Assembly: GCA_963719425.1 (NCBI GenBank) | Contig: OY970382.1 | Coordinates: forward strand, 586,880 to 650,879 | Origin: an uncultured bacterium | GTDB lineage: Bacteria > Patescibacteriota > Minisyncoccia > UBA6257 > 2-01-FULL-56-20 | Direction of reading: 5' to 3' | DNA: 64,000 bases | Shown here: positions 4,771 through 62,698 of the stretch, one piece after another | How the letters are laid out: every line of letters begins with the position of its first letter | Numbering within the stretch: the first letter of the stretch is position 1 | The notes under the pieces: generated by a model | Database searches by the model: none | Told to the model about the DNA's origin: nothing | The model's input: only the letters and a program-made list of their open reading frames with translations | Translations under genes and position numbers: made by a program

Positions 4771-5418
4771 CTACGAACTCACGGCGGACTTCAAGAGCGC
4801 GTAATCCGCGCGGAAAAGATTTTTCGCAATGTGAAAGACGCCGAACGCGATGAAAAGCGCGGAGAACACGTCTATGGAATAGTGGAGATGCCCAAGGAGC
4901 ACGGAAACGCCGCCGATCGTGGTGAATGCGAAGAAAAGGTATCGTAAATATTTTTCGTCCCAAAAGACGAAGGCGAGCATAAAGGGCAATCCGGCATGCG
5001 CCGAAAAGAAGAGATCGTCGCCGGAGCTAAATCTATAGAAGAAATCGGTAGTATCAAGGTAGGAATGCACCTCTGGCGGCGCGATATGAGTAAGCACCAT
5101 AAAGATAGAACGAATGAGCGTAAAGAGGGCGATGCTTTTCAATACAAAAGGGATTCGCCGCGGCTCGTAAAAAATAATGAGAAGTACGAGGACATAGAAA
5201 ATAGTGGCTCCCTCCGTGAAGACAAAATCAACGTTTACGACAGGAATATTATCCAAGATAATGTCCGTGACGGTATTTGACGCATGCGTCACCGTAAAAA
5301 TATTCGCGTAATACGTTGCGAAGAGCGCAGCCCCATAAAATATCACACCGAAAATCACCCCGACAAGGAAGCTCTTTTTTGTCCAAATGCCTCTATGTTT
5401 TCGTATGAATCTCTCCAT
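4771..5418 (-). CDS. PAP2-superfamily membrane phosphatase (tentative)
   Basis: Multi-TM protein with SGH-like (FSSGDDLFFSAHAG) and HxxxD-like (HLHYSIDV) motifs. The start overlaps the upstream stop (TAATG). Confidence 0.45.
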   Translation of the reverse strand: MERFIRKHRGIWTKKSFLVGVIFGVIFYGAALFATYYANIFTVTHASNTVTDIILDNIPVVNVDFVFTEGATIFYVLVLLIIFYEPRRIPFVLKSIALFTLIRSIFMVLTHIAPPEVHSYLDTTDFFYRFSSGDDLFFSAHAGLPFMLAFVFWDEKYLRYLFFAFTTIGGVSVLLGHLHYSIDVFSALFIAFGVFHIAKNLFRADYALLKSAVSS

Positions 5419-7343
5419 TAGCGAACGTGAAGTTTCGCCTCGCGCACAAGTCCGGCCACAATCACATCCATATCCATCGTCGCCACCGCGACGAACTTGT
5501 CAGCTCCCCCGTAATACACGTAGAGCTGATGCTTCATCATAACCGCCCCGCAGGGAAATACAACATTCGGGACCACGCCCTCCTTTTCGTAAGACATCTC
5601 GGGCTCCAAGAGCGGGTCGTGCGTCCGATAAAGCACGAGAGAAGGATCTTTGGCATCAAGCAGCGCGGCGCGGATATTGTAATGGTTCGTGCGGCGCGAA
5701 ATGCCATGATAGAAAAGCAGCCATCCATATTCGGTTTCCAAGGGCGGCGAGGTGCCGCCAATTCGCTTTGAATCCCATTCGCTTGCGCGCGGCTGCATAA
5801 GAATCTTTCCGCCGAGGAATTTTGTCTCGCCGTCAAAATTCAAATCATCCACCGAATCAATCCAAATATCCGATCCAAGGCGATGCAAGAACCAATATTT
5901 CCCGGCAATCTTTTTGGGAAAGAGCGCTGCGTCTTTGTCGTCAAGGCCCAGCGGGGAGATCAAAACCGGCTTTGTCCAGTTCCATTTATGATCATCAAAA
6001 TCTCGCGCGCTAATGGAGGTGAACGCCACGCGCGGAGGGTTCTTCCCATCAAACGCGGTGTAGCACATATAGATCGTATCCTTTATTTGCGTAAGCCGCG
6101 GATCCTCGCAACCGGAATTGCTGCCCGGCATGAGCTTTTGCTCAAAACCTTCGCGTGGTGTGTAAATCGGATCCTGGAGCCGCTTTGCGATATGCACGCC
6201 ATCCACCGAGCTTGCGTATCCGATGACCGACGTATTGTCGTTGGACATCGCGCGGTAGAGAATCCGCACTTTCCCGTCCAAAAATATTGCCCCGGGGTTG
6301 AAGGTCGCCTTCGCTTCCCATGCATGCTCCTTGACCGGCGCGATGATGGGATTGCCTTCAAAACGGATGAGTTCCCGCCGTCTCGTGAAGACCAGTTGCG
6401 CCAAAAGGTCATTGAGCGGCAGCACTGCGGCACAAGAAACAGTATCTGCGGCGCCATAGTACAGGTATGCTTCCTTCTCGCGGATGAGCGCGCCTGACGG
6501 GAACACGGCATGCGGCACGCGCCCGTAGCACTCATATTCCTCTTCTGGCACAAGAAACGGCCGTTTCACCTCGCCAACGATTTTTTGGGGGTTCTTGAGA
6601 TCCAACAGCGCCGCCTGCACCCCGAAGATCGCCGGCGGCGAAAAGTAATTGTAAATATAGGAATAAAAAACGAACCAGCCGTCTTCGGTTTTTAGTGGCG
6701 CCGAGCCGACCTCCACTTGGTCCTTCTCCAAGTTTTCTTCAATGTCAATGACATGGCTTTTCCAATCGGCGTACCACGCGTTCCAATATTTTTCCGACCA
6801 AATGTCTTCAATGCGATCAAAAAGCGCAAAGCAGATCTTCGCCGGCGGCCGATCGGTGTTCACCGTAAGCATCGCCGCGATCTTGCCCTGGACACGCTCC
6901 GGAAAAAGCGCCATCGCCTTCGCGTTGAAAGGCGTCACAAGATGCTTCTCTTGTATCGTCCTGCAATCGTCGGTGATTGCGACGGCCACCTTGATGCCGT
7001 CCGCGGAAAATTCCCTGACCGCCGTGTAAAAAATATAGTGTTTTCCTTCGAACGTCGTCGCGCGGGGGTCTTCGCAGCCGTAGCGTTCCCAATCATGCTC
7101 CGGACCGAAGAGCCGCTCACGGTTCTTGAAATGAACGCCGTCCTCGCTTACCGCGTGGCCGATCACAGAAACTTCCACTTCGCGGTCTCCCATTTTTTGC
7201 CTCGCGCCCGTCGCGCGATAGAGCATGTGAATCAGGCCGCCTTCCGTGACGACGCACGGATTGTACGCGGCGACGGATTCCCACCCTGACTGCGGGTCGG
7301 GTGAAAGCACCGGATTTTCGGATAAACGCCTAACGAGCGGCAT
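5418..7343 (-). CDS. glycoside hydrolase family 130 (beta-mannoside phosphorylase family) protein with two tandem GH130 domains
   Basis: Two copies of the GH130 signature (NPxVxxxxxWE...YNPxxV...LYRA). The start was placed at MPLVRRLSENPVLSPD (ATG 7343). The ORF opens further upstream at 7583 and overlaps the preceding gene. Confidence 0.75.
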   Translation of the reverse strand: MPLVRRLSENPVLSPDPQSGWESVAAYNPCVVTEGGLIHMLYRATGARQKMGDREVEVSVIGHAVSEDGVHFKNRERLFGPEHDWERYGCEDPRATTFEGKHYIFYTAVREFSADGIKVAVAITDDCRTIQEKHLVTPFNAKAMALFPERVQGKIAAMLTVNTDRPPAKICFALFDRIEDIWSEKYWNAWYADWKSHVIDIEENLEKDQVEVGSAPLKTEDGWFVFYSYIYNYFSPPAIFGVQAALLDLKNPQKIVGEVKRPFLVPEEEYECYGRVPHAVFPSGALIREKEAYLYYGAADTVSCAAVLPLNDLLAQLVFTRRRELIRFEGNPIIAPVKEHAWEAKATFNPGAIFLDGKVRILYRAMSNDNTSVIGYASSVDGVHIAKRLQDPIYTPREGFEQKLMPGSNSGCEDPRLTQIKDTIYMCYTAFDGKNPPRVAFTSISARDFDDHKWNWTKPVLISPLGLDDKDAALFPKKIAGKYWFLHRLGSDIWIDSVDDLNFDGETKFLGGKILMQPRASEWDSKRIGGTSPPLETEYGWLLFYHGISRRTNHYNIRAALLDAKDPSLVLYRTHDPLLEPEMSYEKEGVVPNVVFPCGAVMMKHQLYVYYGGADKFVAVATMDMDVIVAGLVREAKLHVR

Positions 7344-8520
7344 TGCGTAACCTTGGAGCACCGTAGCGCTTGAGTCCCCTGAGAAACGTATCAAGTTTGG
7401 CCATTGCGACGCAGACCACGGAATCTCCTCCACCGTAGTACACATAAAGCTCGCCGTCTTTCGCGACCGCGCCGCAGGAATACACAACGCCGGATTTGAA
7501 CCCACCGTTCTCGTAATGCATATCCGGCTCCAAGACCGGCACCCGCGCGCGATATAAAACCTTCGTGGGATCTTTGAGGTCAAGGATCATCGCGCCGATT
7601 TTGTAGCGATCGGGGTCACGCACATCCATCGCGTGATAGAAAAGCAACCATCCCAGCTTCGTCTTTATGGGCGGCGGCCCCGCGCCGCGGATCCAGCTGT
7701 CCCAACCCCCTGTGCGCGAAACGCGGTCATAATGGCTTTGGATGACTACTTCCTCATTTTCCAATTTTTCCAAGCTGTCAAAATATTCAATTTCAACGCG
7801 CGGCGAAATACTGTGCAAAATGGCGAACTTGCCGTTGATCTTTTCAGGGAAGAGCACCCAGTTTTTGTGAATTTCTCCGGGTGGAGAGATGAGCGCCGGC
7901 TCCTTCCACGTCCAGCGCTTTTTCAAAAAATCTTCCAAACTGATGGAGGACAACGCGATGCGGATAGAGCCCCAGCCGTCAAACGCGGTATACATAAGGT
8001 ACACGGTATTGTGAAGAAGCGTGAGGCGGGGATCCTCGCAGCCACCGTTCCATCCCCCACCCGAGGAGTACGTGAGGGGTGAAACGGACACCTCGGGCAG
8101 CGGCTTCTTGCGGCTCACGGGGACAAATGCAGGTCGCTCTAAACGCTCCGCAATTGTCACCCCATCGTCGCTTCGCGCATATCCCAATACTGACATGTCG
8201 TCCCCCCCGATGGCGCGGTAGAGAAGATGCACGCGCCGATCCGCGTACACCGCACCAGGATTGAACGTTGCTTTCATTTCCCAATATCGCCCTTCGTGCG
8301 GCGAGAGGATCGGATTATGCTCGTGCCGCATAAGTTGATGGGGTTTTGCGCGCGCCCGTTCTTTCTTTTCCCTCCGCGCCCGCGCGAGCGCCGCGCGGCG
8401 CAAGGTTCGCAGCAATGCGGCGTGATGGAAATTAGATTTTTTTGTGCGGCCTCGCCGAACACGCTTTCCGGGAGAAGCGCCGGCGGACTTTTTTCTGATT
8501 GCTTTGCGGAGCAGCGGCAT
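7330..8520 (-). CDS. glycoside hydrolase family 130 (mannoside phosphorylase family)
   Basis: HNPILSPHEGRYWEMKATFNPGAVYADRRVHLLYRAIGGDD is a GH130 signature. The longest ORF adds a 63-aa Arg/Lys-rich N-terminal extension. An alternative start at ATG 8331 (MRHEHNPIL) gives a 334-aa core. Confidence 0.75.
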   Translation of the reverse strand: MPLLRKAIRKKSAGASPGKRVRRGRTKKSNFHHAALLRTLRRAALARARREKKERARAKPHQLMRHEHNPILSPHEGRYWEMKATFNPGAVYADRRVHLLYRAIGGDDMSVLGYARSDDGVTIAERLERPAFVPVSRKKPLPEVSVSPLTYSSGGGWNGGCEDPRLTLLHNTVYLMYTAFDGWGSIRIALSSISLEDFLKKRWTWKEPALISPPGEIHKNWVLFPEKINGKFAILHSISPRVEIEYFDSLEKLENEEVVIQSHYDRVSRTGGWDSWIRGAGPPPIKTKLGWLLFYHAMDVRDPDRYKIGAMILDLKDPTKVLYRARVPVLEPDMHYENGGFKSGVVYSCGAVAKDGELYVYYGGGDSVVCVAMAKLDTFLRGLKRYGAPRLRNAAR

Positions 8521-8607
8521 TGTATTAGCGATACCAAAACATGGGGATGAAAAACCCCCGACCTTATTTACAATTATACACTACACAGTACGCCGCGGAG
8601 GCCCCTC

Positions 8608-9807
8608 TTAGTGCATAAGGCCCCACGTCGCGGGGTCCAAATCCCCATCCGCCTTAAAAAGCATTGCTCCGCGAAGCCCGTATTTCTTGGCTAATGCAAT
8701 CTTATCCGCCGTTGATTGCGCATCGCTGAAGGAGACAAAAAAAGTAGTGGAGGCATTGGGATTTGTCGTCACGAGTGCGGTAGGAAGCGTGGAAGCGACA
8801 ATGGAAGTCAAGCTGGGATCGGCATCTATGTGTGTGCTGGAAGCAAAAGTGAAACTCAACTCACCGGCATTATTGCGGTACGGCGCGATGCCCAAACTGT
8901 CCGCCCGGTCCATCGCCTGGAAAAACGTAAAGCTGCGCACCCTCTCGTACGTGGTCGCCCCCATGTTCCATGAAACCTGATATTCGTAACCGTAGGTCGG
9001 GATGCCGAGTATAACTTTTTTCGGGCTAATCGTCGTGATCGTATTCTTGATCACTTTTTCCACCCATGCCGGATCCGCGGTCGGCGCGTAGAGTGTGCCG
9101 TTCCCTTTTGACGCATCAAGTTTGACGTCAATCGTTCCTTGGTCGTAGGCCATGACGCGCACCTCGTCGCAATATTTATTGAGCACGGCGTAATCTTCCG
9201 CATATTGGACCGTAGGTAATGGGTTTGAATCATAGAGTGAACTCACGGGTGTTCGCGGCAGAACGGTACAGGCAAGCGCCTTGTTCGCCGGGTGCAACCG
9301 GAGTGCGAGCCCATAGATAAAAAGAGAATAATACGGCTTCGTGCTGGATGACATTCCTTCAAAATCAATATCAATCCCGTCAAATTTTTCCGATTTCACA
9401 AGCGTGGCAATCGTATCCTCTTCCGCTTGGCGTTTCTTAGTATTGGAGAGCAGCTTATAAATGTTTGTGGTGTCAAACCAAGCAATGGTGGGAATGATCT
9501 TCACGCCCGCGTCGCGGACGGCACCGAACCACGCGTCCCATGAACCGTTGCCGATGTTGAGGTCGTCAATCAATGCGCCGCTTGAATTCAGTTCATAGGA
9601 AAACGGGCTCACCTCGTGAAGGGTGCTAAGGTTCACCGCGATGTTCGCCGCACCATTTTGGCTCTCCCAAAACGGCAGCCAGACGCCGTAGTAGAATGGC
9701 GTCTTTGCGGCCGCGTGCGCCGTTGCCATCCCTGCCGCACCCGAGAAAATTGCGGCCGGAACCGCAAGGATCGCTATAAAAATTGTGGCGATGATTTTCG
9801 TTTTCAT
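8608..9807 (-). CDS. secreted glycoside hydrolase family 18 protein (chitinase/ENGase-like)
   Basis: N-terminal signal peptide. GH18 catalytic motif FDGIDIDFEG (DGxDxDxE). Confidence 0.65.
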   Translation of the reverse strand: MKTKIIATIFIAILAVPAAIFSGAAGMATAHAAAKTPFYYGVWLPFWESQNGAANIAVNLSTLHEVSPFSYELNSSGALIDDLNIGNGSWDAWFGAVRDAGVKIIPTIAWFDTTNIYKLLSNTKKRQAEEDTIATLVKSEKFDGIDIDFEGMSSSTKPYYSLFIYGLALRLHPANKALACTVLPRTPVSSLYDSNPLPTVQYAEDYAVLNKYCDEVRVMAYDQGTIDVKLDASKGNGTLYAPTADPAWVEKVIKNTITTISPKKVILGIPTYGYEYQVSWNMGATTYERVRSFTFFQAMDRADSLGIAPYRNNAGELSFTFASSTHIDADPSLTSIVASTLPTALVTTNPNASTTFFVSFSDAQSTADKIALAKKYGLRGAMLFKADGDLDPATWGLMH

Positions 9808-10944: not shown

Positions 10945-11247
10945 ATGGCTACAAAATTATACGTTGGGGGTTTGCCCTACACCACGACGCAGGATGAGCT
11001 TCAGAATGCGTTCGCGCAGGCCGGCACCGTTTCGTCCACGACCATCATCGTGGACAAGATGACGGGCCGCTCGCGCGGGTTCGGTTTCGTCGAAATGGCG
11101 TCCGACGAGGACGCCCAGAAGGCGATCGAGATGTGGAACGGCAAGGACTTCGGCGGCCGCAAGTTGACCGTGAACGAAGCAAAGCCCCTTGAGCAGCGCG
11201 CTCCCCGGAGCGGCGGCGGCTACGGCGGCGGACGCCAGAGCTGGTAA
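10945..11247 (+). CDS. RRM-type RNA-binding protein with a Gly-rich tail
   Basis: RNP-2 LYVGGL and RNP-1 RGFGFVEM. C-terminal GGGYGGGR. Confidence 0.9.
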   Translation: MATKLYVGGLPYTTTQDELQNAFAQAGTVSSTTIIVDKMTGRSRGFGFVEMASDEDAQKAIEMWNGKDFGGRKLTVNEAKPLEQRAPRSGGGYGGGRQSW

Positions 11248-11272
11248 ATCTGCTCACTGCAGAAACAAAAAT

Positions 11273-11297
11273 CCCGCAGCAATGCGGGGTTTTTGTT
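11273..11297 (+). terminator. rho-independent terminator
   Basis: CCCGCA-GCAA-TGCGGG followed by GTTTTTGTT. Confidence 0.65.
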
Positions 11298-11469
11298 ATG
11301 TCCTGTTTTGCCTTTTTCGGAACCCGCTCATGACTTCGGAAAATCTAATTCGCTCCCGACGAAAATCCGCCACCCTCTCGCCTTCGGCGGGGGTCCCGGC
11401 AGATTTTCGGTTCGCTCGTTGATTTTTCTCGCCATTCCGCTAGGTTCCTCAAAACTCAAAACAGGACAT
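11298..11469. repeat. about 170-nt intergenic element bounded by a 13-bp inverted repeat (ATGTCCTGTTTTG / CAAAACAGGACAT)
   Basis: Perfect terminal inverted repeat. The interior holds GC hairpins (gccttcggcggggg). It lies between two convergent genes. Confidence 0.5.
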
Positions 11470-11509
11470 ATGCAAAATATCCCGCTTGTCTGCGATGACA
11501 ATTTAATTT

Positions 11510-13294
11510 TCAGACTACCTCCGCCTGATAGCACCGCTCGCAATACACGATCTCCGACCGGCCGGGAGCGTAGGGGGTTTGAAATCTGTTTGGACACGGA
11601 GCTGTACCGTGAAAATGTCTTCCGGTATTTGTGTATTTTTCTTGTTCGGACCATTGTCCCTTGCACATGCAATCCCGCTTCCAGAGCTTAAGCGGGTTTC
11701 GTTCAGCAAGACGTTCATGGTGCCGACAGTTCGGGCATAATCGCGGAAGCGGTATATTGAGCTGGCGGTAGAACTGTAATTCGCGCGGAACAATACGAAA
11801 CGCAGTCGTACACTGTTCATTGCACGCACCCTTGTGAGCGCAGCCTATAATGTCTTCCGTGATTTTGTCAGGTACGTCGCGAATATGATCTGGAAGGGTA
11901 TCGGGTTGCTTCGTGATTTGGTAATCCCTTCCACCTTCATTTTTCCAATAAAACCCTTTTGCTTTTGCATCTGCTTCCGCCAGCGTAAAGTACTCTTGCG
12001 CAACTGTTTCGTTGTATCCAAAAGGCGACAGGTCGGGAGGGAAAAACTCACCGTATTGGTACGTTCGCCCGTTCTGATCCTGATATGGCGAGGTGTTCAT
12101 GTGCTCGATAATCTTAGGAAGGAGAATTTCGTATTTTTCTTGGTCGTACTGCTTGTTCAAAATGCAGTGCGCGTTATTTCGCATTCCTACACACCCAAAT
12201 AGGTGCGACGAGTGTCCGCAGAAGGCGGTGTATTGAATATCTTGGTTGTTACCTCCCTCAGCGCCGTGAACGTTGAACCTGATCATAGCGCTGAAGGAAA
12301 TTCCTGCCCCTTGGGATTCGTAAATAAGCTGCGTATTTGATCCGCCGCTCACATCCATGGAATCTTTGATAAATGGTGCCCGCCACATGTACGCAGCATC
12401 CTCGAGGTCGTGGCTGCTGAAGGACATGCGGGCATTTTTTGAGTTGATGAGGTCGTCTCCTGTGCAATTACTGCAGTTCACCAGGGAGGCATATTTGTGC
12501 AACGCCCTCGCAGTGAGCGAAGTAAATTCTTCTATGAGCTTCGTTTGGGTATGGTAGCTGCCGAGATCGAGCTTTTCCAACTCTGCAAGATACTCTTCTT
12601 TTGTGCGTGGCATGTTTCTGATGCAGAATTCTTTGTTTCGGAGATTGGTACACAGGAAACAGTTGCGACAATTGTAGCACTCATAGAGAAATGATGAGTC
12701 AATACAATTACTGGAGTGTAAGGCGAAAGCGCAATTGTAGTTCTTGTAGCTCAGGACACTCTGGTATACGTTTTCCGAACTGGTGACGTCGAAGCTGTCG
12801 AATACAATTCTCGACTTGTCAACGTCTTTCGAGTAGTAGATCTCTTCCGAGCCGATGGCGGAGTACGATAGGTACACCGCATTACAATCCCGCAGGATGT
12901 TCCCGGCGAAGGGAGAATTCTTCACGTTGGTTTGGGAAATGTTTTGCCGTGGAACGACGGACCAAAGCGTCCGCAGTTGTTTGAAAAAGGGAGTATCCCA
13001 GTCATAATCACGGCCGTACGTAGCGGCATCCCACTTATCCGACAACCAGCATTCGGTGCAGTAGACGGGAAACGGTAAATTTTCTGCGTACATTGAGAGC
13101 ATTTTATTACCACACAGGCCGCAGTTTCGCATATGCAAAAAGCGTTCATTACGGAAAAGCAGTCGTCGAATCATACGGCACTCCGGGCACCACGTCGGCG
13201 GCGGGACCCTTATCTTCTTGTAAAAGTCAAAATCCTCCGGCTCAATCACGAACTGGATTTTGCAATTTTGGCAAAAACGTACCTCAGACTCCAT
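11510..13294 (-). CDS. hypothetical cysteine-rich protein with multiple CxxC zinc-ribbon motifs (594 aa)
   Basis: CQNC...CPEC, CGLC...CTEC, CYNCRNCFLC, CSNC, CPNC...CERC. Long intact ORF with no recognised family. Confidence 0.6.
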   Translation of the reverse strand: MESEVRFCQNCKIQFVIEPEDFDFYKKIRVPPPTWCPECRMIRRLLFRNERFLHMRNCGLCGNKMLSMYAENLPFPVYCTECWLSDKWDAATYGRDYDWDTPFFKQLRTLWSVVPRQNISQTNVKNSPFAGNILRDCNAVYLSYSAIGSEEIYYSKDVDKSRIVFDSFDVTSSENVYQSVLSYKNYNCAFALHSSNCIDSSFLYECYNCRNCFLCTNLRNKEFCIRNMPRTKEEYLAELEKLDLGSYHTQTKLIEEFTSLTARALHKYASLVNCSNCTGDDLINSKNARMSFSSHDLEDAAYMWRAPFIKDSMDVSGGSNTQLIYESQGAGISFSAMIRFNVHGAEGGNNQDIQYTAFCGHSSHLFGCVGMRNNAHCILNKQYDQEKYEILLPKIIEHMNTSPYQDQNGRTYQYGEFFPPDLSPFGYNETVAQEYFTLAEADAKAKGFYWKNEGGRDYQITKQPDTLPDHIRDVPDKITEDIIGCAHKGACNEQCTTAFRIVPRELQFYRQLNIPLPRLCPNCRHHERLAERNPLKLWKRDCMCKGQWSEQEKYTNTGRHFHGTAPCPNRFQTPYAPGRSEIVYCERCYQAEVV

Positions 13295-13368
13295 ACAACC
13301 TCATTCTACCAAAGTCCGCTCCAGCGCCGCGGCTCGCTCTCCGCCTCACGCGGTGGTAAAATGAACAC

Positions 13369-14418
13369 ATGGAAATCGCGCTCTTCGCTATCATTATTAT
13401 CATCCTCGCCGCAATCGCCTGGCGGCTCTGGAAACCGCGGGCGGCGCAACCAAAGCAGGATAACCAGGCGCTGCTTCTTATCCAAAACCAGATCCAGGAC
13501 CAGCAAAAACAGATCCAACATCAGATGAGCGATCTTTCGCGGACGCTTGATACGCGGCTCGGCGATTCCACGAAGACCATGCTCGCACAGTCGGACAAAA
13601 GCGTGCAAATCGTAAAGGAAATCACGGGCGAGATCACGAAAGTAACCGAAGGACAAAAACAGATCGCCTCACTCGCCGACCAATTGAAAGGACTGCAGGA
13701 TATTTTGAAAAATCCGAAACAGCGCGGCGTGCTCGGAGAATATTTTTTGGAAACGGTTTTGAAGAATGTCCTTCCGCCCGGCGCCTACCAACTGCAGTAT
13801 CCCTTTGCCGATGGGACAAAAGTGGACGCTGTCATTTTCTATCAGGACCGCGTGATCCCGATTGACTCAAAGTTCAGTCTGGAAAATTACAATCGTTTTG
13901 TGGGCGCGGCCACCGACGAGGAACGCAAGCGCTACGAAGACGCCCTGCGCATGGACCTCAAAACGCGCATTGACGAAACCGCAAAATACATCAAGCCCGC
14001 CGAGGATACGCTGGACTTCGCCTTTATGTTTATCCCGTCGGAGGCGCTTTACTACGACCTCCTTGTGAACAAGATCGGCGCTGCCGCCGAACGCGACCTT
14101 ATCCAATACGCGGGCGAGAAGCGTGTCTATCCTGTTTCCCCCACCACGTTCTACGCCTACCTCCAGATGGCGCTCCAAGGAATCCGCCAAATGGAGATCA
14201 ATAAATCCGCCGAGCGAATTCGCAAAAACGTTGGCGAACTGCAACGCCACCTGGAACGTTACGAGGAGTATCTGGAAAAAATCGGTTCACACCTTTCGAC
14301 CACCACAAACGCCTACAACACCGCCTACAAAGAATTCGGAAAGATAGACAAAGACATATTAAAAATCGGCGCGAGCGCCGAGTTGGATAAAGAGGAAGAA
14401 CCGGAGAAACTGCCCTAG
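13369..14418 (+). CDS. rmuC: DNA recombination protein RmuC
   Basis: N-terminal TM helix, coiled-coil and a C-terminal RmuC-like nuclease domain (IPIDSKFSLE...FMFIPSEALY). Confidence 0.8.
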   Translation: MEIALFAIIIIILAAIAWRLWKPRAAQPKQDNQALLLIQNQIQDQQKQIQHQMSDLSRTLDTRLGDSTKTMLAQSDKSVQIVKEITGEITKVTEGQKQIASLADQLKGLQDILKNPKQRGVLGEYFLETVLKNVLPPGAYQLQYPFADGTKVDAVIFYQDRVIPIDSKFSLENYNRFVGAATDEERKRYEDALRMDLKTRIDETAKYIKPAEDTLDFAFMFIPSEALYYDLLVNKIGAAAERDLIQYAGEKRVYPVSPTTFYAYLQMALQGIRQMEINKSAERIRKNVGELQRHLERYEEYLEKIGSHLSTTTNAYNTAYKEFGKIDKDILKIGASAELDKEEEPEKLP

Positions 14419-59209: not shown

Positions 59210-62200
59210 ATGGCAAAACCCATCACTGGACGACAACTCGAAGCCCTCCAGAAGATACAACTTCTTTCCGGGCGCGGCACCCCTCCAACTTTTAAAGAAC
59301 TTCGTAGGGCGCTGGGGGTCGCGTCCGACCAGGGTGTTATAGAGCTGGTGGATCACTTAATCGCGGGCGGCTATCTCCGAAAAGATGTCGGCCAAGCTCG
59401 CGGCATTTTTTTGACTCCGAAGGCGCATCTGACGCTCGGGCCGTCCGCGAAAGGAACCGATGAGCAAAGCGCACGAACGTTCCGCTTCAAGCCGGTCCAA
59501 AGGCGAGTGTACGAAGGTCTCCTGAGAATCGATCCGCGCTTGGGCCGCGCGTACGAAGGCGGCTTGCGCGTATTGCTCGATCGTAGCAATCCAGAAAGTA
59601 TTTCCCAGTCGGCTCATTCTATGCGGGAAATAGGCATGATGCTTGCCCGTAAAGCCGGAGAACCCAAAGATGATGCGAAAGATGAAAAGAGCAAGGAACG
59701 AAGCGCCTTTTCCAAAAAGATCTGGAAGGTGCTCGATCCTCGCGGGGGAACCACGGAACTCAAAACGGTTTACGATATTTGGAACGAGGAATTCCAGACG
59801 TTTTTCACGAAAATCGCGCACCATAACAATGGAGAAGAAGTTCCGCGAGAGGCGTACGACAAGAAGTTGGCCGAATTTGATGAGCTTTTACGATATGTCC
59901 TTGCCTTTCAAACGGAAATATACGAGGAGATCGACGGAATAATCAAAAAGGGCCCGGGCAAAGCTCACCCTCAACGTTTGGCGTTCTTGATCAAACGAAA
60001 CGTGGAATCGTATGGCTATTTCTTCCGGAACGCCAACGCGTCATGGCTCGATTTTTTGAAGGCCAATCTTCTCTTGACCTCGACGTGGGAGGTTGGCCAG
60101 TATCTTTTAAAAATCGCCAAAGAAAAACCCGCTGACGTGATGGACGTCATACTCAAAATGAAAGCCGTTCCGATGGCGTGGCGCATCAGGGATGCCATGG
60201 TGACGGCGGCCTCTAAAATGCCGTCGGATGTTGCGGCGAAGATTGTCCCTAAAATCGTTCGCCAGGAACACTGGCTCGAAACTACGCCCGGCCACTTGCG
60301 CGACCTGCTGCTCCACTCCCTAAACGATCTTCTGAAGACCCTTATCTCGGGCGGAAAATATCCAGAAGTCTTGAGCCTTACGCATAAGATGCTGGAGGTC
60401 AAAGTCACCGTCGATCCGACGACGAAACGAGCGATCGAGCGGCCGATGGACAGTTATTATTACGGCGAAATAATAAAAACTTTGCACACCCTGCCCGATG
60501 AGCAAGCCGGGAATTTGGCGAAGGTTCTTCGCGAGAAACTTTGCGAGGCGATCGCCGTTGAATCACCAGAAAGAAACGAGCAAGATTATTCTCATATCTG
60601 GCGTCCGGCCATTGAGGCAAACAGGCAAAATTGGGGGAACGAGAATACCAAGGAAATTTTGGTGACCGCTTTGCGCGATTTTCTGGAACGCCATGTCGCA
60701 TTTCTCATACAAACGGGCGCGACCGATATTCCCAAAAAAATCGCCGCGATCTTGGCGAATAAAATTGACTACGCCATTTTGAAGCGGTTGCGCCTCCATG
60801 TTTATCGTTTGCATATTCTCCAATTCAAAAGGGAAATTCCCGCTGAGCTACTTCGGAACGAAGAGGATTCGGATTTGTGGCATGAATATTTCCTACTTCT
60901 TCAAGCGGCGTTTTCTGAGATGCCCGCCGCATTTCAGCGTTCTTACGTCGCCCGCCTTTTGAAAAAGAAGCCTCGCAACATCCGGAAAGAAATGATTCCG
61001 TATTGGCGGGCGCGCCGCCTCGTGGCGATCAAGAATTATCTCCCGGAAGGAACGGCGAAGAGGTTTGAGAAAATGATTTCAAAATTTGACGATGATGACG
61101 CCGCCTTCACGATGCGACACGAAACCTTCCACGGCCCGACTTCTCCGTTGACCGAAGAAGAGATGGAAAAGGCCACGATCGAGGAATTGGTGGAGCGTTT
61201 TATAACGTGGGAACCTGCGTCCGACATTTTTTCTCCTTCCCGAGGAGGCCTCGGCTTGAGCTTCGCGAACGTCATAAAGAAACAGCCCGATCTTTATATC
61301 GGGAAGGTGACTCTTTTCAAAAACCCGAGGTTGCGACCCGTTTTTTTCTATCATCTTTTCGGAGCGCTGAGGGAAGTGTTGCACAAGCGGGGCGATCGGG
61401 ACTGGTCCGGCGTGGTGGATCTTGCGGCTTATCTCGTCCAGAACGGTCAAAAAGGTTTATTACCGGTTTTCGAGGATCCCAAAGAACGGGAGGCCGATTG
61501 GAACGATGTTTTCCAGAACGTGGCCCATTTTTTGAGCGACGGGTTGCAGTTCCAAGAGTACGGTTTCAAAAAAGATGATGATGAAAAGATATGGAATTGC
61601 ATTCAATTTCTTTGCCAAAACGAAGACCCGACCCCGCAGCGCGAGAAACAATACATGGAAGGGAATTTCGATCCCTACGGTCTTTCAATCAACACCGCCC
61701 GGGGGCAGGCATTCCACGCCCTCATCATGTACATCTTTTGGGCCAACCGAAACGCGAAAGCCGCGAAGCGCTTTATACCGGAAGGAGTAAAAACAATATT
61801 AGAAGAGCACCTTGACGTTTCCCGCGACGGCAGCTTGGCCGTCCGGTCGGTGTACGGCAGATTCTTCCCGTGGCTTTATTCCCATGATCGTGAATGGGTT
61901 GAGAAAATTACCCCTCTCATTTTCCCCGATGACAATGAGGAGCTTTGGTATGCCGCATGGGAAGGTTATCTTTTCACTTTCTTCGGCGACGTGTATCGCG
62001 CGTTCCGCGGTCTTTATGACAAAGCAATAGAAAAAATCGCGACACCGAAGCCGACCAGGCGCTATTTTATAGATCCCGTCGAAAGGTTGGGCGAACACGT
62101 CATGGTGGGGCTGGCCCACGGTTACGACGATGCCGGGGTCGCTCCGCTTTATGAAAAATTTTTCGCAAAAGCGAACCCAAAGCAACGAGGCGACGCCATC

Positions 62201-62698
62201 AGTTTCGCCGGCAGGCATTGGATCGTACGTGATCAAATACCCGAGGGTGAGCGATTGACCAGCACGAAACCGTTGGAGAAGTTTTGGGAATGGAGACTGA
62301 AAAATTCAAACTCCCCGGAGGAACTCCGGGAATTCGGTTGGTGGGTGAAGCCGGGTGCGTTCGACGATCGATGGATGCTTGAGAATCTCATCTGGACGCT
62401 GGAAAAAACGGAGGGGGATGTTGATGGGGAATTTAAAGTGATACAAGCGTTGGCCGAGCTCGCCGACAAGCACCCCCTCGCGTGCGCCAAGGTCATTTCC
62501 TTGGTCACACGCTCGCGTGTTAGGGAGAAAGTCATTTTTCACACCAACGAGGATGAAATAGGGCAAGCCCTGAAGAAAATATATGCTTCTAAAAACAAAG
62601 ATGCCCTTGAACTGGCCGATGGGATCGTCGATCACCTCACCAAGCTGGGCTTCGAGAGATTCCGATATATAAAAACACCGAGAGAGCCAGAGAAATAA
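59210..62698 (+). CDS. 1162-aa protein with an N-terminal LexA-type winged-HTH DNA-binding domain fused to a large alpha-helical repeat region of unknown function
   Basis: ITGRQLEALQKIQLLSGRGTPPTFKELRRALGVASDQGVIELVDHLIAGGYLRKDVGQARGIFL resembles the LexA N-terminal domain. No S24 peptidase domain follows. The rest is helical with no known motif. Confidence 0.7.
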   Translation: MAKPITGRQLEALQKIQLLSGRGTPPTFKELRRALGVASDQGVIELVDHLIAGGYLRKDVGQARGIFLTPKAHLTLGPSAKGTDEQSARTFRFKPVQRRVYEGLLRIDPRLGRAYEGGLRVLLDRSNPESISQSAHSMREIGMMLARKAGEPKDDAKDEKSKERSAFSKKIWKVLDPRGGTTELKTVYDIWNEEFQTFFTKIAHHNNGEEVPREAYDKKLAEFDELLRYVLAFQTEIYEEIDGIIKKGPGKAHPQRLAFLIKRNVESYGYFFRNANASWLDFLKANLLLTSTWEVGQYLLKIAKEKPADVMDVILKMKAVPMAWRIRDAMVTAASKMPSDVAAKIVPKIVRQEHWLETTPGHLRDLLLHSLNDLLKTLISGGKYPEVLSLTHKMLEVKVTVDPTTKRAIERPMDSYYYGEIIKTLHTLPDEQAGNLAKVLREKLCEAIAVESPERNEQDYSHIWRPAIEANRQNWGNENTKEILVTALRDFLERHVAFLIQTGATDIPKKIAAILANKIDYAILKRLRLHVYRLHILQFKREIPAELLRNEEDSDLWHEYFLLLQAAFSEMPAAFQRSYVARLLKKKPRNIRKEMIPYWRARRLVAIKNYLPEGTAKRFEKMISKFDDDDAAFTMRHETFHGPTSPLTEEEMEKATIEELVERFITWEPASDIFSPSRGGLGLSFANVIKKQPDLYIGKVTLFKNPRLRPVFFYHLFGALREVLHKRGDRDWSGVVDLAAYLVQNGQKGLLPVFEDPKEREADWNDVFQNVAHFLSDGLQFQEYGFKKDDDEKIWNCIQFLCQNEDPTPQREKQYMEGNFDPYGLSINTARGQAFHALIMYIFWANRNAKAAKRFIPEGVKTILEEHLDVSRDGSLAVRSVYGRFFPWLYSHDREWVEKITPLIFPDDNEELWYAAWEGYLFTFFGDVYRAFRGLYDKAIEKIATPKPTRRYFIDPVERLGEHVMVGLAHGYDDAGVAPLYEKFFAKANPKQRGDAISFAGRHWIVRDQIPEGERLTSTKPLEKFWEWRLKNSNSPEELREFGWWVKPGAFDDRWMLENLIWTLEKTEGDVDGEFKVIQALAELADKHPLACAKVISLVTRSRVREKVIFHTNEDEIGQALKKIYASKNKDALELADGIVDHLTKLGFERFRYIKTPREPEK

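Follow-up and report, generated by a model that had tools for sequence, protein, structure and literature searches.

A very large uncharacterised family of Parcubacteria proteins with a probable nested-duplication architecture of zinc fingers and solenoids

The gene and its surroundings

Within the window, the 64-kb stretch of DNA analysed here, an open reading frame occupies positions 11510-13294 of the minus strand, exactly as first described. It begins with ATG and encodes 594 amino acids followed by a stop codon (11510-11512), and both the ORF listing and the homologues present it as a complete coding sequence. The protein contains 31 cysteines, or 5.2% of its residues, as against 0.85% in 32 further long ORFs from the window. 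At least seven CxxC pairs had been reported. Counted with overlaps there are ten, beginning at residues 8, 36, 58, 79, 206, 209, 212, 274, 520, and 585, where shuffles of the sequence give 1.54 +/- 1.18 and reach ten in 0 of 20,000 trials.

The public gene call (P0001) is shorter, 540 aa, beginning at Met55 and thereby cutting off the first zinc finger. Two observations favour the 594-aa start: C8, C11, C36, and C39 are 97-100% conserved in homologues (133 diverse family members, alignment A3), and an independent call from a separate assembly (P0269) has the identical 594-aa product. A GAGG motif, similar to a Shine-Dalgarno sequence, precedes the ATG by 4 nt. The first cysteine falls within residues 3-16 in all 133 of the diverse members. 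The protein has no hydrophobic segment (KD19 maximum 0.64) and no signal peptide, which by sequence makes it cytoplasmic.

The gene was called monocistronic, and by layout it is: the upstream neighbour, encoding RmuC (13369-14418, plus strand), is divergent, and the downstream neighbour, encoding an RRM protein (10945-11247, plus strand), is convergent. The claim that structured palindromes flank the gene holds on the 3' side but not on the 5' side. The intergenic region that the gene shares with the RRM gene (11255-11509) is a long imperfect palindrome, folding as a single hairpin of -108.3 kcal/mol with a z score of -7.87 on the minus strand and -7.03 on the plus strand. A terminator scan and inverted repeats place a bidirectional intrinsic-terminator hairpin within it, at 11264-11297. 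No Rfam family matched the palindrome, and a search for further copies found none elsewhere. The 74-bp divergent region shared with rmuC (13295-13368) yielded neither an inverted repeat nor a consensus sigma-70 site.

What kind of protein is this? Pfam gives no match to the whole protein at E<=10, PADLOC none at E<=1, and NCBIfam, PHROGs, and PDB sequences nothing meaningful; profile searches of Pfam, NCBIfam, and PDB return only weak matches to the fingers. The statement that the protein belongs to no recognisable family is therefore right at standard thresholds for the protein as a whole but needs correcting for its ends, which are of a recognisable domain type: one family member (P0085) exceeds the cut-off of PF13451. 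That the protein carries no recognisable enzymatic motif, as had been claimed, is borne out: searches of Pfam, NCBIfam, and PDB sequences match it to no catalytic family.

The preliminary description had set its claims against a known-family match or a mis-assembly, and searches of Pfam, NCBIfam, and homologues turned up neither. A radical-SAM or Fe-S maturase would be expected to match Radical_SAM in Pfam or NCBIfam, which this protein does not, and its list of cysteines holds no CxxxCxxC. No HNH or other nuclease model was matched, as would be expected of a known Zn-ribbon nuclease. A fused mis-assembly is at odds with an architecture that recurs at full length in thousands of independent assemblies and with the identical P0269 product. 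The probability that the gene is an artefact of any of these kinds (a mis-assembly, a maturase fragment, or a known nuclease) is negligible.

Fingers, solenoids and the M domain

The order of parts is, with little doubt, a pair of treble-clef fingers, a solenoid (B1), a helical hairpin, a second solenoid (B2), an M domain, and a second pair of treble-clef fingers. AlphaFold2 models the protein with a pLDDT of 90.6 and a pTM of 0.92. The predicted architecture is an unusual one: two narrow beta-helices of 12-residue period framed by four treble-clef fingers.

CxxC pairs do exist at both termini, as had been claimed, but the rubredoxin-like ribbons read into them are instead treble-clef fingers, distant matches to zf_Tbcl (PF13451) and zf_Tbcl_2 (PF23477). 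N-terminal finger 1 (residues 1-52, 13139-13294, minus strand, as are all parts of the protein) is of the zf_Tbcl type, with putative ligands C8, C11, C36, and C39, and is followed by a conserved basic helix, CPECRxxRRxxxRNER. In the model C8 and C11 lie between strands 4-7 and 14-17, while C36 and C39 lie at the N-terminus of helix 37-45. C520 and C523, at helix 521-529, repeat that arrangement. Each finger is thus predicted to have treble-clef topology, with a knuckle between two strands and the second CxxC at the N-terminus of a helix. N-terminal finger 2 (residues 53-105, 12980-13138; zf_Tbcl_2-like, putative ligands C58, C61, C79, and C82) leads into a conserved SDKWD / YGxDYDFSxPFFEQ segment. 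Its site is missing in about half of the family, C61, C79, and C82 being about 54% conserved.

The C-terminal module repeats the N-terminal one (BLASTP E 3e-11; hhalign 98.8%, E 7.7e-17). C-terminal finger 1 (residues 483-535, 11690-11848) is homologous to N-terminal finger 1. It has putative ligands C485, C495, C520, and C523, conserved at 80-99%, with C491 in an insertion, and it too is followed by a basic helix, CPNCRHxxRLxxRNP. C-terminal finger 2 (residues 536-594, 11513-11689) has putative ligands C542, C567, C585, and C588, and its core cysteines are 97-98% conserved. About 72% of members have an optional insertion bearing C544, H560, and H562, and about 28% lack it. The protein closes on a conserved VYCExCYxxEVV.

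How good are the matches to named domains? The N-module of the window's protein scores 17.6 bits against PF13451 (E 0.0038) where the cut-off is 24, but P0085 scores 30.7 bits, and 25 of the 40 closer family members (alignment A1) match at E<=1. All scores against PF23477 fall below the 27-bit cut-off: 10.1-19.3 bits for the second fingers of the N- and C-modules of three members, 10-14 bits for the window's protein. The similarity of the second fingers to zf_Tbcl_2 is suggestive only. The finger cysteines are conserved in the manner of true metal ligands, all four putative Cys4 sites being intact in the 594-aa copy, and the insertion's cysteine and histidines make a fifth C/H site possible. 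A stand-alone gene for a finger module seemed to lie among the family's neighbours. It sits at the cut edge of its locus, at coordinates 3-320 of L039, and in all likelihood represents the C-terminal end of another full-length copy.

B1 (residues 128-235, 12590-12913) consists of eight repeats of 12 residues, whose consensus is C-Y-x-C-x-x-C-x-x-[SC]-x-N. Its cysteine frequency is autocorrelated at lag 3 (0.67) and at lag 12 (0.55), and DSSP finds bridges at every third residue of the AlphaFold2 model. The domain ends in a conserved cap, CxNCFxCxNLRNKxYCIxNxQYSKEEY. The string CYNCRNCFLC (residues 206-215, 12650-12679), present as described, is the last coil of B1. It had been taken for a cluster, and its appearance invites the idea of a metal or redox site. 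If it were one, then its cysteines should be held as a set, and they are not. C206, C209, C212, and C215, spaced by two residues, are cysteine in 79, 88, 94, and 76% of members, otherwise Leu or Ser, and they stand in register with a ladder of Cys, Ser, and Val that runs through all eight repeats.

The same is true of the ladder as a whole. Its cysteines are 30-94% conserved and are swapped for Ser, Val, or Leu, whereas the finger cysteines, outside N-terminal finger 2, are 80-100% conserved. Their co-occurrence reaches a pairwise r of 0.39 at most, with no quartets and no all-or-none sets. Most have gone from the 594-aa copy itself (V140, I152, V164, S167, V176, and others), whose relatives are richer in them, yet the fold is retained in its model. 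The solenoid cysteines behave as interchangeable small core residues of a buried ladder, not as obligate ligands. Substitution and co-occurrence together rule out CYNCRNCFLC as an obligate Fe-S or zinc site, and a ferredoxin-type [4Fe-4S] site, which would call for an invariant set of the CxxCxxCxxxCP type, is excluded by positions that are replaceable and in ladder register. The redox scaffold of the preliminary description is disfavoured for the same reason, that the string is a solenoid coil with cysteines that exchange freely. The lesson is a cautionary one: dense strings of CxxC need not mean metal sites.

Between the solenoids lies a variable helical hairpin (residues 236-264, 12503-12589; helices 232-241 and 247-262 in the model), at 2.98 bits the segment of highest entropy. 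B2 (residues 265-384, 12143-12502) is homologous to B1 (hhalign probability 99.8%, E 2.3e-27), and no other stretch of the family is as conserved as its end, FGCVGLRNKQYCILNKQY[ST]KEEY. A helix (residues 385-401) and the M domain (residues 402-482) follow, together at 11849-12142. The M domain carries a near-invariant motif, YGEFFPxxxSPFxYNETxAQEYFP (12008-12055), is modelled with a pLDDT of 91-98, and has no PDB sequence match even when sought with a domain profile.

Such conservation raises the thought of an enzyme with a new catalytic domain, in which the M-domain motif and the two LRNK cap coils would form an active site while fingers and solenoids position a substrate, be it nucleic acid, protein, or metabolite. 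The family's most conserved 15-mers do lie in the B2 cap coil (entropy 1.06 bits) and the M domain (1.20 bits). Invariant or nearly invariant polar residues (E416, S423, N428, E429, T430, Q433, and E434) are found where pLDDT is above 90, and paralogues with distinct variable surfaces would suit enzymes acting on different substrates. Against this, neither sequence searches (the domain profile included) nor Foldseek connect the protein with a catalytic family, and there is no family-wide His/Cys/Ser triad, P-loop, or HxH; the insertion that brings H560 and H562 is dispensable, as noted above. I consider an enzyme unlikely.

Distribution of the family and the company it keeps

The protein has at least 5,969 homologues, of which the top 120 are full length with 47-58% identity. 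Grouped at 50% identity, 5,108 clusters match it at E<=1e-3, and at least 2,192 of them, at E<=1e-30, retain the full-length architecture, which bears out the earlier remark that the protein is conserved. The clusters are all from Patescibacteria/Parcubacteria, with no product name beyond "hypothetical", and every named match is to a lineage of the Parcubacteria group. A single match labelled "Woesearchaeota" hinted at archaeal (DPANN) membership, but on its contig it adjoins a bacterial RF-1 gene. Phage, plasmid, and IMG/VR collections lack the family, apart from one marginal match to the N-module. A literature search found no description of it, the nearest paper being one on T4CP homologues of Patescibacteria (PMC12102498). 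The 594-aa protein almost certainly belongs to a very large uncharacterised family that is confined to the Parcubacteria group within the Patescibacteria (CPR) and has a nested-duplication architecture.

The window has a single isolated copy. Elsewhere the family is usually found in tandem arrays on one strand, up to eight copies side by side over about 14 kb in one locus, and members adjoin one another 60 times where shuffled gene order gives 33 +/- 3.9. One might suppose that these arrays are recent amplifications. However, 115 of 117 array members find their best match in another genome, at 58% identity, as opposed to 44% to their neighbour, from which it follows that the paralogues are ancient. 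By sequence the family comprises several ancient paralogous subfamilies.

This history bears on another view, that the protein is a metal-buffering or redox scaffold, using its cysteines as a store or relay for Zn, Cu, or Fe-S clusters or as a thiol redox buffer, with arrays that raise capacity as arrays of metallothionein do. The cysteine content, higher still in the ladders of relatives, and the CxxCxxCxxC string speak for it, as does CutA1, a protein of divalent-ion tolerance, which accounts for 6 of 146 immediately flanking genes and twice lies within an array. But ancient and distinct paralogues are not dosage amplifications, ladder cysteines are replaced one by one and mostly lost from the copy at hand, and no radical-SAM or ferredoxin model is matched. 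Many conserved motifs without cysteine and a fixed 590-aa architecture are not expected of a storage protein. A store like metallothionein, with sets of cysteines and little other constraint, can be rejected, and the broader idea of a buffer or redox scaffold is improbable.

The genes flanking the family are about 85% co-directional, with short gaps, and arrays abut the infA-rpsM-rpsK-rpsD-rpoA-rplQ and secDF clusters. A link to FtsZ/FtsA or RmuC, suggested by the window's neighbours, was not seen in other genomes. Only one type of gene outside housekeeping does recur: ATPases resembling VirD4, TraD, HerA, and CedD are near the family in 25 of 82 loci (about 30%), at 3.7 per 100 kb. They are absent within +/-6 kb in the other 70% of loci, and none of the VirD4/HerA kind is found in the 64-kb window. 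VirD4-type ATPases number roughly two per Patescibacteria genome, by detection criteria different from those of the count per 100 kb (PMC12102498). Within loci, immediate adjacency of ATPase and family amounts to 20 pairs as against 16.8 +/- 3.1 at random (P = 0.19). The tight operon that had been entertained is thus no more frequent than random gene order provides, and the association is regional, not operonic.

Paralogue arrays together with VirD4-like ATPases bring to mind the Bep arrays of Bartonella, which are encoded next to virD4. [quoted passage not shown] Patescibacteria do have T4SS, to which a part in host interaction is ascribed, but only 148 of their 5,713 T4CP homologues lie near virB4 (PMC12102498), and the arrays keep to strings of ribosomal and secDF operons. 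The C-terminus is a zinc knuckle, conserved right up to its final residue, not a disordered positive tail, and matches neither BID nor any other Pfam domain. A tightly folded multi-zinc beta-helix would probably make a poor substrate for unfolding. Nor do ancient paralogues, 45-58% conserved across candidate phyla, resemble fast-evolving effectors. It is hard to give this explanation more than a slight chance.

The ATPases lend themselves to yet another explanation, since some of them have weak PADLOC matches to mad8 and HerA (E 1e-11 to 1e-16). The family could serve as sensors in conflict with phage, variable solenoid faces recognising the invader and signalling to the ATPase nearby, and a variable outward repeat surface over a conserved core, in a multi-copy family, is what one would look for. 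It is too much to expect, though, of orthologous ancient subfamilies that are not lineage-specific expansions and that reside among housekeeping genes and not in islands. The 594-aa protein itself has no PADLOC match, mobile-element collections are almost devoid of the family, and strict adjacency to the ATPases does not exceed chance. Defence, too, is a poor prospect.

A proposed function and its relation to known systems

I propose, tentatively, that these proteins may be zinc-stabilised scaffolds that bind nucleic acid or nucleoprotein. A rigid, pseudo-symmetric frame would grip its client through four conserved basic elements related by the symmetry of the protein. Each module would contribute the Arg-rich helix that comes after the second knuckle of its finger 1 (CRxxRRxxxRN in the N-module, CRHxxRLxxRN in the C-module), and each solenoid its LRNK cap coil. 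Among the 133 diverse members, R40, R43, R44, R524, R528, and K381 all reach at least 90% conservation. R48 never varies among the 40 closer members, where R219, K374, and K381 likewise reach at least 90%. The M domain would supply a further surface for binding, possibly for catalysis, and the specificity of each paralogue would come from the outward solenoid faces, which vary. Binding of nucleic acid is plausible because the Arg-rich helices after the knuckles are conserved and because ATPases resembling DNA translocases are regionally present. Counting against the scaffold are a near-neutral pI of 6.4 for the whole protein and an acidic M domain (pI 4.6), only the C-module being basic (pI 8.9). 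Treble-clef fingers, moreover, mediate contacts between proteins as well.

The partner of such a scaffold could plausibly be the orphan VirD4/TraD/HerA-like translocases that are enriched in its region. More speculative, and rather doubtful, is the view that the family is the signature part of a nucleoprotein machinery specific to Parcubacteria, in which ancient, zinc-clamped beta-helix paralogues present DNA or some other polymer to orphan VirD4/HerA-like translocases, encoded apart from any T4SS. In that case the family would also stand for an intracellular fold class not seen before, in which a pseudo-symmetric multi-zinc frame holds two copies of a beta-helix with 12-residue coils and a Cys ladder. 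Such a machinery might serve the uptake and salvage of DNA or the handling of the chromosome. If the scaffold does work with a translocase, that would point to a new pathway of DNA handling in organisms reliant on scavenging for their nucleic acids.

Parcubacteria rank with the most abundant uncultured bacteria, and their genomes are roughly 1 Mb or less. Such small genomes nonetheless keep up to eight copies of a 590-aa protein, each conserved since before the candidate phyla split. Ancient retention in multiple copies implies an important function, specific to the lineage, that current annotation has missed.

How does the protein compare with known systems? Its termini share the "probable treble-clef zinc finger" type of zf_Tbcl, zf_Tbcl_2, and NCBIfam TIGR04272 (CxxC-x17-CxxC), each module having a CxxC...CxxC finger that matches PF13451 and then one that matches PF23477. 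Those are small domains, annotated without function and mostly found in short proteins, whereas here about 380 residues of solenoid and M domain, unrelated to the fingers, lie between two finger pairs.

A Foldseek search of PDB with the AlphaFold2 model finds no significant match. The weak ones are to left-handed beta-helix enzymes only (E >= 0.27, TM <= 0.2, rmsd 12-19 A), while weak structural matches of the finger region, phage HNH endonucleases among them (E 0.06-3), are typical of any zinc knuckle. Gamma-carbonic anhydrase, LpxA/LpxD, and GlmU share the local geometry of a solenoid. Their hexapeptide coils, however, take 18 residues where these take 12; there is no Hexapep match in Pfam, and none of their catalytic or trimer features was identified in the 594-aa protein.

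The antifreeze protein of Tenebrio molitor (TmAFP, 1EZG) is closer in its repeat, with the same period of 12 and a small residue or cysteine at every third position. The register taken from the 1EZG sequence is TCTxSxxCxxAx, as compared with C-Y-x-C-x-x-C-x-x-S-x-N here, and C2, S5, C8, and A11 of the TmAFP repeat face inward. Homology can be dismissed, since hhalign gives a probability of only 5-9% and TmAFP is missing from the Foldseek matches. TmAFP is secreted and disulfide-bonded, with a face of threonines that binds ice, while members of this family appear cytoplasmic, tolerate Ser, Val, or Leu for Cys, and cap each solenoid with LRNK...KEEY. The resemblance is one of repeat geometry only.

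An analogy of function, and of function only, may be drawn with the pentapeptide-repeat proteins MfpA and Qnr, cytoplasmic beta-solenoids that mimic DNA and act on DNA enzymes. Both are rigid cytoplasmic rods, regularly charged on the surface, in a setting related to DNA. The period of the pentapeptide solenoid is 20 (5 x 4), not 12 (3 x 4), Pfam finds no pentapeptide match here, and the finger modules and M domain have no counterpart in MfpA or Qnr.

There remain the orphan VirD4-type homologues of Patescibacteria, multi-copy and mostly unlinked to virB4, whose exaptation "cannot be ruled out" (PMC12102498). They are neighbours of the family, not relatives, and the family is a possible handle on these so far unexplained ATPases.

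The gene and its relatives

The preliminary description singled out a 594-aa protein, dense in CxxC motifs and belonging to no recognisable family, and both points hold. The open reading frame (11510-13294, minus strand, ATG start) encodes 31 cysteines, or 5.2% of its residues; for 32 other long ORFs of the window the figure is 0.85%. Its CxxC motifs, ten when overlaps are counted, compare with 1.54 +/- 1.18 in shuffles of its own residues, and 0 of 20,000 shuffles reach ten. A Pfam search gave no match even at E<=10, and NCBIfam, PHROGs, PADLOC and PDB sequences gave noise only.

Then there are the relatives. Among 5.8 billion proteins, a word-indexed search found at least 5,969 homologues. 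The best 120 of these are 47-58% identical to the protein over its whole length and are 553-650 aa long, except for P0025 (a 464-aa partial) and P0001 (a truncated call of 540 aa); where any name is given, it is 'hypothetical protein'. A single UniRef entry among family members is titled 'Zinc-binding domain-containing protein'. When 1.84 billion cluster representatives were searched exhaustively with a profile, 5,108 clusters passed E<=1e-3, and 2,192 of them E<=1e-30. With thousands of homologous clusters and full-length relatives, the fused mis-assembly considered earlier is ruled out. Readings of the protein as artefact, radical SAM or nuclease are effectively excluded.

At least 582 family copies are confirmed in GTDB representatives (one genome per species). 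Among the matches listed, all informative record titles name Parcubacteria-group lineages (Liptonbacteria, Giovannonibacteria, Jorgensenbacteria, Nomurabacteria, Niyogibacteria, Sungiibacteriota, Paceibacterota, Minisyncoccia). Organism labels pointing outside that group are unreliable, and those of many MAG records with family members look generic or wrong. The protein of the top 'uncultured Candidatus Saccharibacteria' locus (L005, CAZYEL010000005.1) is identical to P0003, from Liptonbacteria at NCBI, while P0035 (L085/L086), deposited as 'Candidatus Woesearchaeota archaeon', adjoins a bacterial-type peptide chain release factor (PCRF/RF-1) and a glutaredoxin; its archaeal label probably reflects a binning error. 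L035, a contig of 267 kb under a Burkholderiales label, has a VirD4-like ATPase and three copies of the family gene, of which two are full-length and the third is truncated by the locus edge. GenBank phages contain no relatives except one marginal finger match, and PLSDB plasmids and IMG/VR contain none. The family is large, ancient and lineage-defining, and its predicted structure is unusual.

The public call for the same locus, P0001, is a 100%-identical entry on an 887,956-bp contig. That entry places the start at Met55 and so runs to only 540 aa, dropping residues 1-54 (13133-13294) and hence the first, most conserved zinc finger. The longer start is supported by the conservation of C8, C11, C36 and C39 (97-100%) and by P0269, a full 594-aa product called in an independent assembly.

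The gene is alone on its own strand, as first described, with a divergent RmuC gene on one side (13369-14418, plus) and a convergent RRM protein gene on the other (10945-11247, plus). Of the palindromes said to flank it, only that on the 3' side was borne out; no inverted repeat was found in the 5' spacer. The 3' element fills the roughly 250 nt between the convergent genes (11255-11509), a single long imperfect palindrome with a fold energy of -108.3 kcal/mol (z = -7.9 on the minus strand, -7.0 on the plus). Its structure far exceeds the needs of the bidirectional terminator embedded in it (11264-11297). Possible identities are a long 3' UTR structure, an ncRNA or the relic of a MITE; a search of Rfam gave no family, and no second copy occurs in the window or related loci.

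Elsewhere the window holds a full-length match to LOOT RNA (Rfam RF03000; 53391-53510, minus; 73.3 bits against a gathering score of 46.4), an sRNA family without assigned function. Just downstream of an HhH-GPD gene is a run of glycan-active genes (5418-9807, minus). Two encode GH130 proteins resembling beta-1,4-mannooligosaccharide phosphorylase, of which one is 721 aa long and bears an additional N-terminal region; another encodes a GH18-like protein that seems to carry a signal peptide. Two ORFs are very long for a small-genome organism: 27896-32098 (minus; 1,400 aa) and 59210-62698 (plus; 1,162 aa).

Fingers, solenoids and the cysteine ladder

Duplications nested one inside the other make up the protein: the stretch 1-105 has its homologue in 478-594 (BLASTP E 3e-11; hhalign 98.8%, E 7.7e-17), and between these two a first solenoid, B1 (about 131-242), is homologous to a second, B2 (about 279-395; hhalign 99.8%, E 2.3e-27). 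Each terminal module has two fingers. The first resembles Pfam zf_Tbcl, scoring 17.6 bits here, short of the 24-bit cut-off, but 30.7 bits in P0085, another family member; the second weakly matches zf_Tbcl_2, and an NCBIfam CxxC-x17-CxxC model weakly matches the family. In an AlphaFold2 model built from 133 sequences (pLDDT 90.6, pTM 0.92), each finger is a treble clef, with the first CxxC in a knuckle between two strands and the second at a helix N-terminus. Among 133 diverse members, site 1 (C8/11/36/39) is 97-100% conserved, site 3 (C485/495/520/523) 80-99% and site 4 (C542/567/585/588) 97-98%; site 2 (C58/61/79/82), intact here, is kept in about half, and an optional insertion (C544/H560/H562) is present in about 72%.

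The cysteines of the middle region form a structural ladder. B1 consists of eight 12-residue repeats (consensus C-Y-x-C-x-x-C-x-x-[S/C]-x-N); autocorrelation of the family-wide cysteine frequency is 0.67 at lag 3 and 0.55 at lag 12, and the model places beta-bridges at every third residue. The cluster CYNCRNCFLC (residues 206-215) is the last and best-conserved coil of B1. Ladder positions hold Cys in 30-94% of members, with Ser, Val or Leu in the rest; Cys at one scarcely predicts Cys at another (maximum r = 0.39, no quartets), and this protein has lost most ladder Cys of coils 1-4 while keeping the predicted fold. These data argue against an obligate Fe-S or zinc site at the cluster, and therefore against the redox scaffold first suggested; facultative zinc in the last coil is possible. 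A role in metal buffering or redox is very unlikely, the interchangeable ladder Cys being part of the specific evidence against it.

The most constrained stretches include the solenoid cap coils CxNCFxCxNLRNKxYCIxN and FGCVGLRNKQYCILNKQY[ST]KEEY, the knuckles with basic helices CPECRxxRRxxxRNER and CPNCRHxxRLxxRNP, a segment YGxDYDFSxPFFEQ, and YGEFFPxxxSPFxYNETxAQEYFP in the M domain that follows B2. An undiscovered enzymatic activity centred on M is the main rival to the scaffold proposed below, though an improbable one. What varies is the first half of B2, the helical hairpin 236-264 and, within the repeats, the positions that face outward (5, 6, 8 and 9). The whole protein has a pI of 6.4, M being acidic (4.6) and the C-module basic (8.9).

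Genomic setting

Across 82 family loci (+/-6 kb each), 45 hold two to eight same-strand copies, and family members adjoin each other in 60 pairs against 33 +/- 3.9 with shuffled gene order. For 115 of 117 array members the closest relative lies in another genome (median identity 58%, against 44% to the next-door copy). The copies are therefore not recent duplicates, and the arrays are sets of ancient, separately maintained subfamilies. The densest seen (L064, CAZGST010000001.1, 22230-35954) packs eight copies, one cut at the locus edge, into 13.7 kb, a striking share of a genome of about 1 Mb.

Some 85% of the flanking genes are co-directional, spacers are short, and most of these neighbours are housekeeping genes (infA-rpsM-rpsK-rpsD-rpoA-rplQ, secDF, dnaK/dnaJ/grpE, aminoacyl-tRNA synthetases). 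That the protein is a defence sensor is very unlikely, and specific evidence stands against it. Only two non-housekeeping neighbours recur. CutA1, a divalent-ion tolerance protein, accounts for 6 of 146 immediate neighbours, adjoining or inside arrays (L009:6323-6628, L071:9285-9593, L052:7898-8203 and others), which hints weakly at a link to metals. Divergent VirD4/TraD/HerA/CedD-like P-loop ATPases occur at 25 of the 82 loci. Their density, 3.7 per 100 kb, is an order of magnitude above the roughly two per genome (5,713 T4CP homologues in 2,918 Patescibacteria genomes, 148 near virB4) of a study with different detection criteria, which considered exaptation of these homologues possible (PMC12102498). 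The ATPase genes directly adjoin family genes no more often than chance (20 against 16.8 +/- 3.1 in random order within loci) and the 64-kb window has no such ATPase, so the link is regional, not operonic. No hydrophobic segment or signal peptide was found in the protein; that it is a secreted T4SS substrate is a slim prospect, with specific evidence against it.

Upstream of several arrays (L042:1541-5992, L010, L052, L071, L008, L026) a block recurs: secD, secF, a Sigma70_r4 + HARE-HTH protein (about 342 aa), an ATPase-like protein of about 450 aa without Pfam match, a protein of about 172 aa, and a VirD4-like ATPase (about 490 aa). The 450-aa and 172-aa proteins are uncharacterised.

A tentative scaffold and its known parts

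I tentatively propose that the protein is a zinc-stabilised scaffold that binds nucleic acid, nucleoprotein or a partner protein, possibly serving orphan translocases. It is predicted to be a cytoplasmic, rigid, pseudo-symmetric frame whose true zinc sites lie in the four treble-clef fingers alone. Its conserved basic elements, related by the pseudo-symmetry, are four in number: an Arg-rich helix after a knuckle, twice, and the two LRNK coils. These may offer contacts; M has a conserved surface, and the outer surfaces are paralogue-specific. Together with the housekeeping-like setting and the ATPase enrichment, these features make the scaffold the best fit, doubtful as it is.

Pfam, NCBIfam, the PDB and the searchable literature contain no description of the family as a whole, nor of its paired 12-residue Cys-ladder solenoids, its M domain or its symmetric layout. 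The parts have precedents: the terminal fingers are of a known type, functionally uncharacterised, and beta-solenoids are a known fold class.
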